Below, piece by piece: positions 3,956-13,335 of a stretch of 19,783 nucleotides of DNA. Location: the IMG/VR virus record IMGVR_UViG_2778261691_000003, positions 1-19,783 of that record; one strand, 5' to 3'. A program made the translations under genes and the position numbers. The DNA comes from a virus (Duplodnaviria > Heunggongvirae > Uroviricota > Caudoviricetes). The notes beneath the pieces are model-generated. The model was not told the origin of the DNA. It worked only from the letters and a program-made list of their open reading frames with translations, and did not search any database. The number at the start of each line of letters is the position of its first letter. Within the stretch, counting starts at the first letter, position 1.

Positions 3956-4031
3956 TGGTGCTGGTTAACGGACTTGAACCGCTACCCATTCGCTTACAAG
4001 GCGACTGCTCTACCATTGGAGCTAAACCAGC
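3956..4031 (-). tRNA. tRNA-Thr (anticodon UGU), phage-encoded
   Basis: 76-nt minus-strand sequence GCTGGTT TA GCTC CAATGGTA GAGC A GTCGC CTTGTAA GCGAA TGGGT AGCGG TTCAAGT CCGTT AACCAGC A CCA. Perfect 7-bp acceptor stem, 4-bp D stem, T-loop TTCAAGT, encoded CCA; anticodon loop CUUGUAA gives UGU. Confidence 0.75.
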
Positions 4032-4036
4032 ATGTT

Positions 4037-4111
4037 TGGCGGGACAGCGTGGGCTCGAACCACGATAAGAAGGTTAACAGCCTTCCGTAATGACCTTTAT
4101 ACGACTGACCC
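4037..4111 (-). tRNA. tRNA-like gene, possibly tRNA-Asn (anticodon GUU), atypical
   Basis: 75 nt: GGGTCAG TC GTA TAAAGGTCAT TAC G GAAGG CTGTTAA CCTTC TTAT CGTGG TTCGAGC CCACG CTGTCCC G CCA. Perfect T arm and anticodon stem, but one U-U mismatch in the acceptor stem and only a 3-bp D stem; lies 5 nt upstream of the tRNA-Thr. Confidence 0.45.
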
Positions 4112-10856: not shown

Positions 10857-11573
<717 letters not shown>

Positions 11574-11760: not shown

Positions 11761-11982
11761 ATGAAAAAATCTGCAAAGCACTTTTTCAGCGCTATGGGCT
11801 CTATCCTTGACCTTTGCCCAGCAGGTAGCTACAGCGAGTATCATTCAAATGCTACAGACATCGACCTTATCAACTCAGATTGGGTTAAGGTAGGTAGTTA
11901 CGTTAGAGACGCTGTAACTGATAATGAGCAGAAAAAAATCCCAAAGAAAGCTTCAAACCGCCGCACCGAGAAATCTTGTTAA
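11761..11982 (+). CDS. hypothetical protein, ORF-A of the rex-slot cassette (likely N-terminal part of a frameshifted gene)
   Basis: 73 aa ORF with AGGA 8 nt upstream of the ATG; ends 58 nt after the start of the overlapping ORF-B; an A7 tract at 11932-11938 lies in the overlap. Confidence 0.45.
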   Translation: MKKSAKHFFSAMGSILDLCPAGSYSEYHSNATDIDLINSDWVKVGSYVRDAVTDNEQKKIPKKASNRRTEKSC

Positions 11983-12457
11983 CCAACCAACTCCGTTAGG
12001 GCGAGTTCAAGACGGTAAAACCGAACTGCTTATAAATGAGGTCGCAAAGAACCCTCAAGTTCTTGAGCGCCTCATGGACAGGCCAGATCTAGCTGGCATC
12101 ATGATGCAGGTGACTCACACTAGATCAGGGCCACTCCCAGACGCTGACGAATTAGCTAAGTACGAAAGAATATCTCCAGGATTCGCTCGCGAAATAATGG
12201 ACATGGCTAAGGCTGAGCAAAAACACAGACACGAGTATTACAAAGCAGGACAGAGGGGAGCAATTTGGCGAGATCGACTCGGACAGATCTTTGCGATGAC
12301 TTCTGTCTTTGTTTTCGCAGGAATTGCTTACAAGATGATTCAGCACGAGGCTTATGGCTGGGCTACCGGGCTTCTTGGTGCTGAGTTAGTTGCTTTAACT
12401 AGCGTGTTTATAATTGGAAGAAGAGACAAACCGAATCCAAAGCAAACTAAAAAATGA
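11924..12457 (+). CDS. membrane protein with two C-terminal TM helices (DUF2335-like motif), ORF-B of the rex-slot cassette
   Basis: 177 aa in the +1 frame relative to ORF-A, with no obvious RBS of its own; motif PLPDADELAKYERISPGFAREIMDMAKAEQKHRH followed by hydrophobic helices LGQIFAMTSVFVFAGIAY and GWATGLLGAELVALTSVFIIG. Confidence 0.55.
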   Translation: MSRKKSQRKLQTAAPRNLVNQPTPLGRVQDGKTELLINEVAKNPQVLERLMDRPDLAGIMMQVTHTRSGPLPDADELAKYERISPGFAREIMDMAKAEQKHRHEYYKAGQRGAIWRDRLGQIFAMTSVFVFAGIAYKMIQHEAYGWATGLLGAELVALTSVFIIGRRDKPNPKQTKK

Positions 12458-12460
12458 GAC

Positions 12461-12489
12461 AACCCGGCCTCAGCGCCGGGTTTTCTTTG
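12461..12489 (+). terminator. rho-independent terminator ending the cI / rex-slot transcription unit
   Basis: Stem AACCCGGC / GCCGGGTT (8 bp, 6-nt loop) followed by UUUUCUUUG. Confidence 0.7.
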
Positions 12490-12640
12490 CCGCACGTTCG
12501 CCCCAAAACACATAACCAATTGTATTTATTTGAAAATTAATAGATACAACTCACTAAACATCGCAATTCAGATCTCTCGATCACCTCCCAAGCCACACAC
12601 CCCTGCAAAAAAAATAAATCTATATAAAAAACATACAGAT

Positions 12641-12703
12641 AACCATCTGCGGTGATAAATTATCTCTGGCGGTGTTGACATAAATACCACTGGCGGTGAT
12701 ACT
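12641..12703 (+). promoter_or_regulatory. left operator region OL3-OL2-OL1 with pL promoter
   Basis: OL3 12641-12657 (AACCATCTGCGGTGATA), OL2 12661-12677 (TATCTCTGGCGGTGTTG), OL1 12685-12701 (TACCACTGGCGGTGATA); -35 TTGACA 12675-12680, -10 GATACT 12698-12703; these match lambda OL/pL, and the sequence diverges from lambda downstream. Confidence 0.85.
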
Positions 12704-12771
12704 AAACACATCAGCAGGACGCACTACTCACCAGGGCGGTGAATATACAACGATTCGAATATGAATCTACG

Positions 12772-12786
12772 GCGCTGACAAAGCGC
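12772..12786 (+). promoter_or_regulatory. nutL boxB-like hairpin (GCGC-UGACAAA-GCGC)
   Basis: GCGCTGACAAAGCGC lies ~70 nt downstream of pL; same loop as the nutR boxB here and as the P22-type boxB recalled from memory; no clear boxA found. Confidence 0.5.
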
Positions 12787-12951
12787 AATAACCAAAGTGA
12801 ACTTTGGGGTGTGGTGAAGGGTTCATGGACGGGAATATGTCGCACGTAAAGCGGCGAGGCCTGCGGGACTATTGCCGAATTGAAGTAGGCCGAAACAGGT
12901 CGAAATGGGTCTCCCACCTACCACACCACCAAAGTTCATCAGGAGGTCTAT

Positions 12952-13335
12952 ATGACACGCAGAACTCAGTTCAAAGGCAATTCACGTTCTCGTCGTCGTG
13001 AGCGTTTAAAGGCAAAGGCATTAGCTAACGGCGTACTGGCCCGCGAAGAAGCAATAAGTTCAGAAGTATTACACCGCCCTACTCTAAGCAGAGCGCAGAT
13101 TCAGGCTAAAGGTACTCACGAAACGCCTGAGCGCATAGAAGACGCTAAGCCAATTAAGTTCATGGCACAGGACGTGATCTGGCAACAGAAAGAATACAGA
13201 CGCAATCTGGAGAGAGCGGCCATTGTGTACGCGAATGAGTTTGGACATAAGCAACCAGAAACTGGTGTATGTCTTCCAAACGTAGCCATTTACTCGGCAG
13301 GATACCGGAAATCAAAACAACTGACAGCGAGGTAA
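12952..13335 (+). CDS. N: antiterminator N (P22 gp24 / phage 21 type)
   Basis: 127 aa; arginine-rich N-terminus TRRTQFKGNSRSRRRERLKAKALANG and C-terminus AIYSAGYRKSKQLTAR resemble P22 gene 24 as recalled; preceded by CAGGAGG. Confidence 0.8.
   Translation: MTRRTQFKGNSRSRRRERLKAKALANGVLAREEAISSEVLHRPTLSRAQIQAKGTHETPERIEDAKPIKFMAQDVIWQQKEYRRNLERAAIVYANEFGHKQPETGVCLPNVAIYSAGYRKSKQLTAR

Follow-up and report, generated by a model that had tools for sequence, protein, structure and literature searches.

A conserved long-range helix in the N leader of an HK97-like lambdoid phage, probably a counterpart of the lambda RNase III hairpin

Two distant, complementary stretches lie between the boxB hairpin and the N gene of a lambdoid phage. 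This led us to ask whether they pair in the RNA and whether the resulting helix is of the kind through which RNase III controls N in lambda. The window (by which we mean the whole 19,783-nt stretch analyzed) is a lambdoid phage early-left region, with the leftward operon shown on the + strand. HK97 is the closest relative of the wider region. By BLAST, the leader itself is at least 99% identical to HK97, HK106, mEp234, 933W (EDL933-Stx), and dozens of Stx1 and Stx2 phages. The region also contains a lambda-like cI gene (10860-11573, with Peptidase_S24 and HTH domains) and a gene (11924-12457) whose product is a DUF2335 membrane protein. Behind the DUF2335 gene, a GC-rich stem-loop with a T-run (12461-12482) resembles the Timm terminator; its position corresponds to that of the "Timm" terminator annotated in CL707.

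The promoter scan placed pL on the + strand at 12675-12703, with TTGACA beginning at 12675, a spacer of 17 nt, and GATACT ending at 12703. The OL operators and pL of the window are identical in sequence to those of lambda. From this identity we infer that transcription starts at about A12710, and from there the leader is 242 nt long. The nutL region (12720-12786, + strand) corresponds to what is labeled "nutL" in the record of a 933W-like phage, GQ499365, with 99.6% identity over this stretch. It contains a small hairpin (12728-12742), which lambda has too, a dyad, GATTCGAATATGAATC (12752-12767), and boxB, and these hairpins are present in the minimum free energy (MFE) fold. The boxB hairpin, GCGCTGACAAAGCGC (also written GCGCUGACAAAGCGC), occupies 12772-12786 on the + strand. 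It is of the P22/H-19B type, identical in sequence to the boxB of P22 nutL and of H-19B, folds into a 5-bp stem with a 5-nt loop, and is the presumed N-binding site. The N gene (12952-13335, + strand, from the ORF list) encodes a 127-amino-acid antiterminator of the H-19B/933W/HK97 type. Its product matches the Pfam family N_peptide (PF25694, E = 3e-15), and HK97 and Stx phage records give it the name N. The Shine-Dalgarno sequence of N, AGGAGG (12941-12946, + strand), ends 5 nt before the start codon. Thus, the order on the pL transcript is hairpin 12728-12742, dyad, boxB, long helix, and N Shine-Dalgarno sequence. The elements of the lambda N leader come in exactly this order.

The 5' arm of the long helix lies at 12797-12816 and includes a boxC-like sequence, GGTGTGGTG; the 3' arm lies at 12915-12939, and both are on the + strand. 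The helix consists of 11 bp, one bulged A (A12928), and 8 bp. In the lower part, TGAACTTTGG (12798-12807) is perfectly complementary to CCAAAGTTCA (12929-12938), and G12797-U12939 is a possible extra wobble pair at the base. Above the bulge, GGTGTGGT (12808-12815) pairs with ACCACACC (12920-12927). The top can be extended by AGG/CCU or GTG/CAC above an internal loop, which brings the total to about 22 bp. With 11 bp, the bulged A, 8 bp, and 3 further pairs, the helix has about two turns (at least 20 bp), a size suited to RNase III. It encloses about 104 nt. The initial annotation had described an inverted repeat here with a perfect 10-bp core, and we confirmed both. Its estimate of about 7 further pairs with a small bulge becomes 8 bp beyond the single bulged A. 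It was also right that the helix ends just before the N ribosome-binding site, but the site CAGGAGG lies at 12940-12946 rather than at 12941-12947, and the gap, given as 3 nt, is really 1 to 2 nt between the last paired base and AGGAGG.

For 12711-12970 as well as for 12790-12945, the MFE structure and the centroid structure contained the helix. The two segments had folding z scores of -3.57 and -3.99, respectively, and none of 200 dinucleotide shuffles folded as well. We also scored every pair of a 20-nt and a 25-nt segment at the spacing of the helix, on both strands of the whole 19.8-kb window. The helix ranked first, at -31.2 kcal/mol against a mean of -7.1 kcal/mol (standard deviation, 3.3). 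No terminator was reported at the helix by the terminator scan, and UCAUCAGGAGG comes after the 3' arm; a GC-rich stem with a U-run is absent, and the reading as an intrinsic terminator or attenuator was rejected. An Rfam scan of 12400-13100 at E ≤ 10 returned only noise, with no family covering the element.

We then compared the arms across related leaders. Two exact-pattern scans of viral contigs, for two types of 3' arm and Shine-Dalgarno sequence, gave 239 loci and about 120 distinct leaders. The closing helix was in the MFE fold of all 16 representative leader types, including those of lambda, P22, H-19B, and phi80, and its design was the same throughout: about 11 bp, then a single bulged base, A or G, in the 3' strand, and 7 to 10 bp. 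To count pairs, we aligned 69 distinct arm pairs without gaps, taking them from lambda, P22, H-19B, phi80, and the viral contigs. The CTTTGG/CCAAAG core served as the anchor of this alignment, which partly accounts for the core being invariant; where a leader had several CTTTGG-like motifs, the best-pairing one was taken as the 5' anchor. Among the 69 arm pairs, 92.8% of cells were paired, compared with 36 to 42% when the 3' partner was slid and 75.8% when it was shuffled. Cells changed on both sides numbered 182, against 25 to 59 in slid and 49 ± 5.5 in shuffled alignments, and the covariation score was 0.467, against at most 0.115 and 0.161 ± 0.009, respectively. None of 500 shuffles reached the observed value of either measure.

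Double-sided changes occurred at 12 of the 19 helix pairs in these 69 arm pairs. The basal pairs covaried with the type of flank; pair 10:50, for example, was GC in 41 cases, AU in 17, and GU in 11. The upper stem was wholly different between cassettes yet always complementary, as in GGUGUGGU/ACCACACC, GAUGCGAUG/CAUCGCAUC, GGUGAAUGCAG/CUGUAUUCACC, GAAAGCG/CGCUUUC, GAUUGGAUG/CAUCCAAUC, and ACUGGCG/CGCCAGU. The leaders of lambda, P22, H-19B, phi80, and PA2, which were obtained independently of the search pattern, have the same helix design. A single negative case was HK022, which has put RNA and Nun in place of N and nut: no CTTTGG/CCAAAG motif was found upstream of nun (leader L258, reverse strand, approximately 2180-2540). 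These data show strong selection for the structure of the helix across many lambdoid phages. Folding energy against shuffled controls and conservation or covariation of the arms in related phages were the two checks by which the initial annotation had proposed to refute the structure. The leader folds far better than its shuffles, and the arms are conserved with abundant compensatory change. At the level of sequence, both results support the likeness to the RNase III-processed N-leader structure of lambda that the annotation had pointed out.

How close is this likeness? Lambda and the window share 12 identical nucleotides in the 5' arm (CTTTGGGGTGTG) and 13 in the 3' arm (CACACCACCAAAG), centered on the bulge; the full arms are GGCTTTGGGGTGTGTG and CACACACCACCAAAGCT in lambda and AACTTTGGGGTGTGGTG and CCACACCACCAAAGTT in the window. 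Because of these 12 and 13 identical arm bases, the window helix is, as judged from sequence, homologous to the lambda N-leader hairpin and not a mere analogy. The two hold the same position on the pL transcript, after nutL and before the N ribosome site. They have the same basal stem (CUUUGG/CCAAAG), the same bulged A, and the same upper stem (GGUGUG/CACACC). The distance from helix to AUG is also similar (-13/-14 in the window and -15 in lambda), as is the predicted effect on the accessibility of the ribosome footprint. The surroundings differ. The window has a P22/H-19B-type boxB and no obvious lambda boxA, its N belongs to another family, and its interior, about 98 nt with four hairpins, is unrelated to that of lambda. 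At the base of the helix, UGAA/UUCA is fully paired in the window, whereas in lambda an AA/AA internal loop comes after GG/CU. Thus, the phrase "non-lambda leader" in the initial annotation does not hold for the helix arms, pL, or the first leader hairpin, all of which are lambda-like; the leader is a mosaic. Lambda is a validated RNase III substrate, whereas the window leader is known here from its sequence.

P22 has a hairpin of the same design between nutL and the Shine-Dalgarno sequence of gene 24, in which UUUGG-ACUGGCG pairs with CGCCAGU-A-CCAAA around a bulged A. Its upper-stem and basal sequences are its own, and its helix ends about 12 nt further from the Shine-Dalgarno sequence. Franklin (1985, J Mol Biol 181:75) is said to have noted N-leader hairpins of conserved "form" in P22 (gene 24) and phage 21. 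The rrn operons have a comparable arrangement, a nut-like element (boxB/boxA) followed by a GU-rich, boxC-like strand that pairs far downstream to make an RNase III site. The rrn stem, however, surrounds the 16S rRNA (about 1.5 kb) and functions in the maturation of ribosomes, not in translation control; the antitermination complex has been proposed to deliver its 5' strand to the partner (PMC8632103). The early RNase III sites of T7 (R1.1 and others) and lambda sib and cIII are likewise phage mRNA hairpins at which host RNase III alters the expression or stability of neighboring genes (PMC8708148, PMC9032294). Those hairpins are local and have internal loops that direct the enzyme to cut one strand, whereas the window helix is long range, closes a multibranch interior, and is coupled to a nut site. 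The helix was marked in no paper of the literature searched and is not annotated in the records of HK97, HK106, 933W-like phages, or Stx phages.

We conclude, with a probability of about 0.8, that the helix is the HK97/933W/Stx-phage version of the RNase III-sensitive N-leader hairpin and homologous to that of lambda. The lambda hairpin is reportedly cut at +88/89 and +197/198. On the lambda sequence these positions fall between UUUGG and GGUG and between ACC and AAAG, with the geometry of a 2-nt 3' overhang, as RNase III typically leaves. The corresponding cuts in the window are predicted to lie between G12807 and G12808 and between C12930 and A12931. Cleavage and its effect on N translation in the window would follow by homology with lambda, where N mRNA is positively regulated by RNase III (PMC9032294, PMC8708148, and PMC5725501 taken together, citing Kameyama 1991 and Wilson 1997/2002) and where N with Nus factors at NutL represses N translation across a leader that measures about 200 nt and is called "highly structured" (PMC5725501; also PMC9032294).

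We asked how far the helix would hinder ribosomes directly. Opening the footprint from -20 to +15 was calculated to cost 17.7 kcal/mol in the full leader and 10.7 kcal/mol in an RNA starting at 12931; the lambda values were 11.8 kcal/mol for the full leader and 6.8 kcal/mol for the processed RNA. The Shine-Dalgarno sequence and the AUG are themselves unpaired when the helix is formed, and opening them costs 5.0 kcal/mol in the full leader and 6.0 kcal/mol in the processed RNA. Thus, any direct structural block of initiation would be steric and modest.

The lambda precedent suggests the following sequence of events. During transcription, the 5' arm would first be held in a small local hairpin, and once the 3' arm was transcribed the long helix would form. 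It would bring NUTL, which lies about 10 nt before the 5' arm, close to the Shine-Dalgarno sequence, which lies about 2 nt after the 3' arm, and would occupy the upstream part of the ribosome footprint. Through this juxtaposition and coverage, N translation would be low and repressible by the N-Nus complex at NUTL. RNase III would then cut both strands beside the bulge, and the cut would separate NUTL from the N message, leaving an N mRNA with a 21-nt leader that would be better translated. Since cutting would raise N translation, the supply of N would track the RNase III activity of the host. N proteins of the H-19B type have a reduced need for Nus factors, and for this reason NUTL-dependent autorepression might differ from that in lambda.

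The local hairpin in this proposal is CCAAAG-UGAA-CUUUGG (12792-12807, + strand; -5.3 to -6.4 kcal/mol), in which CCAAAG (12792-12797) pairs with CUUUGG (12802-12807) across a UGAA loop. It takes up the first six bases of the 5' arm and so competes with the basal helix. Its 3' end coincides exactly with the predicted RNase III cut after G12807. An equivalent hairpin was predicted in most of 36 distinct 5' contexts, with the compatible variants CAAAGC/GCUUUG in lambda, CCAAAC/GUUUGG in P22 (a compensatory change), and CCAAAGCA/UGUUUUGG in a phi80-type module. Such a hairpin may act as a folding gate that keeps the 5' arm sequestered before the 3' arm has been transcribed, and once the predicted cut has been made it may serve as a 3' cap that shields the nut fragment from exonucleases.

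The leader is a mosaic, and the junctions of homology among the BLAST relatives fall inside the helix. H-19B shares nutL and the 5' arm with the window up to 12811, then has an unrelated interior, and resumes at CCAAAGTTCA. In the other direction, phi80, PA2, CL707, and 683R2 share only the cassette and the helix core, from 12802 or 12805 to 12934, and have other flanks; those of CL707 and 683R2 are lambda nutL and lambda N. By clustering, the interiors fell into at least 26 unrelated families of 51 to 217 nt, all within the same helix, and many of the families were found with both lambda-type and H-19B-type nutL/N flanks. The cassette loci in viral contigs run from L014 to L254 (for example, L097, L117, L107, L131, L135, L147, and L138). 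The cassette of the window (12817-12914, + strand) has four predicted hairpins and is common to HK97, 933W, CL707, phi80, and PA2. The RNAalifold consensus of 18 variants kept all four hairpins inside the closing helix. Within the inner helix 12858-12863/12896-12901, compared among the variants of HK97, phi80, PA2, and others, pair 12862:12897 changed from UA to CG in 5 of the 18 sequences, and pair 12861:12898 changed from CG to UA in 1 of them. Because of these compensatory changes, the interior fold itself seems to be under selection, on thin evidence. In the phi80 N leader (L005/L255), the same cassette is 90% identical and sits in another basal helix, with an extra hairpin before the Shine-Dalgarno sequence. 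PA2-like Stx2a phages (L006) have no annotated N gene after the module.

Some of the interiors in other leaders resemble tRNAs. In the window, the interior had no tRNA match in the Rfam scan, and ARAGORN called nothing in the leader; its only calls were an adjacent tRNA-Thr(tgt) and tRNA-Asn(gtt) pair at 3956-4111 on the - strand. At its default settings, ARAGORN also called nothing in 13 related loci, and when introns were allowed it called three cassette types. Two cassette types exceeded the 29-bit gathering threshold of the Rfam tRNA model. One is represented by L064 (1552-1678, - strand; 39.6 bits) and L114 (8658-8784, - strand; 39.4 bits) and the other by L175 (370-450, - strand; 34.8 bits). 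They have acceptor, D, and T arms, and L064 and L114 carry a 70-nt insert in place of the anticodon arm. The acceptor stem of these tRNA-like cassettes is at the same time the upper stem of the leader helix. The conserved A-CCA after this stem would suggest a tRNA 3' end, but the register of the tRNA body relative to the bulge-CCA differs among the cassettes, which weakens that reading; therefore, we do not interpret A-CCA as the end of a tRNA. The majority of cassette types do not resemble tRNAs. The L090/L138/L227 type and a second module in L033 contain a T-arm-like hairpin, GGTTCGAnTCC, that scores below the tRNA threshold.

Modules of the same design (CUUUGG, stem, interior, stem, A or G, CCAAAG) recur two or three times in some early-left operons, downstream of N and each directly upstream of the ribosome site of an ORF. 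On the reverse complement of the respective loci, they lie at approximately 9886, 10625, and 10910 in L125, 836 and 1621 in L033, 4429 and 5690 in L114, and 2821 and 4009 in L064. Equivalents of the local hairpin are also found in the secondary modules. The second module of L033 precedes a gene for an 80-amino-acid protein with an N-like C terminus.

Could the arms be explained without an RNase III-sensitive RNA helix? Gapless inverted repeats of 12 to 22 nt are not rare in the window, where 8 pairs lie within 250 nt of each other, and this one might have been a chance match. However, chance is effectively refuted by the rank of this duplex as the first in the window (z of about -7), by shuffles none of which was as good, and by the covariation. 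It is also very improbable that the arms are conserved as DNA, either as recombination linkers or as the terminal inverted repeats of a mobile cassette, with RNA pairing incidental. The breakpoints do lie at the CTTTGG/CCAAAG core (12802-12805 and 12934 for phi80, PA2, and CL707; 12811 for H-19B), and the single site has received at least 26 unrelated interiors between lambda-type or H-19B-type flanks. However, conservation of a linker predicts nothing like upper stems that are specific to each cassette and stay complementary through 182 double-sided changes, and the covariation of the basal pairs with flank type also speaks against it. The DNA and RNA views are compatible, since selection for the helix would create the linker.

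Two further readings accept the RNA structure and give it another role. In one, the helix is purely structural, bridging NUTL to the ribosome site or blocking a standby region, and RNase III leaves it uncut. That it abuts the Shine-Dalgarno sequence and adds about 7 kcal/mol to the opening of the footprint would suit such a role. We consider this unlikely, given that the central 12 to 13 nt of each arm are identical to those of a validated RNase III substrate and that about two turns with the same single bulge have been kept in all types. The other reading, slightly less likely again, has the helix-closed module chiefly encode a stable small RNA, tRNA-like or with some other function, that is released by RNase P, RNase III, or both, with control of N as a secondary matter. 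The two cassette types above the tRNA threshold, the three ARAGORN calls with introns, the conserved fold of the window-type interior with some compensatory pairs, and the similar modules before other genes all favor it, as does the cleavage by E. coli RNase P of the precursor of phi80-induced M3 RNA (PMC5499578, PMC11143913). It is opposed by the window interior, which has neither an Rfam match at E ≤ 10 nor an ARAGORN call, by the tRNA bodies that are out of register with the bulge-CCA, and by the majority of cassette types that are not tRNA-like. M3 RNA is a hairpin-type RNase P substrate that has, like the modules, a stem followed by R-CCA on a phage early transcript, whereas in the window helix the CCA is base paired. 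The phi80 record JX871397 carries no M3 RNA annotation, and M3 RNA was not linked to the phi80 copy of the module. The anti-sRNAs AgvB and AsxR of EHEC prophages were rejected as a counterpart; they map near PR' and not in the N leader.

The RNase III-sensitive hairpin remains our preferred reading, and the exchange of interiors may add a second layer to it. We hold tentatively, and regard as more probably wrong than right, the suggestion that the N-leader helix is a docking frame for exchangeable structured-RNA cassettes, in which the modules would be general processing "punctuation" that releases stable, functional small RNAs and the local hairpin would protect the nut fragment. On this view, the varied interiors, some of them clearly tRNA derived, would share one frame that recurs in the early-left operon of some phages, in each case shortly before a gene and often behind a small CCAAAG hairpin.

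The probable switch in the N leader is of a conserved and well-understood kind: the mechanism is known from lambda, and what is new is an uncharacterized member of the HK97/933W type. By homology, the lambda paradigm would extend to the H-19B/933W family of N proteins, for which precise cut sites can now be predicted. N is the first product of the lytic program, and its level gates all delayed-early expression. Since this leader is found in HK97 and Stx phages, an RNase III-dependent gate on N, if true, would couple prophage development to host physiology, and in EHEC it would also affect Shiga toxin output. Few natural series of covariation in a phage mRNA helix are as clear as this set of leaders, which also shows that junctions of mosaic recombination sit inside an RNA structural element. 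The less usual parts, namely, the exchange of cassettes, the tRNA-like interiors, the tandem modules, and the hairpin at the cut site, might repay more work.

Finally, we asked whether the interior might be coding. Short ORFs overlap it at 12739-12849 and 12804-13001 on the + strand and at 12711-12917 and 12823-12939 on the - strand. We rejected them because they overlap a site that is occupied by 26 unrelated cassettes of variable length. In PV340546.1 (PhiR5_2) and PQ600366.1 (phiXuzhou21-Stx2a), a "hypothetical protein" is annotated under the match to the N leader. Because the cassettes are so variable, this is probably a spurious gene call over structured RNA.
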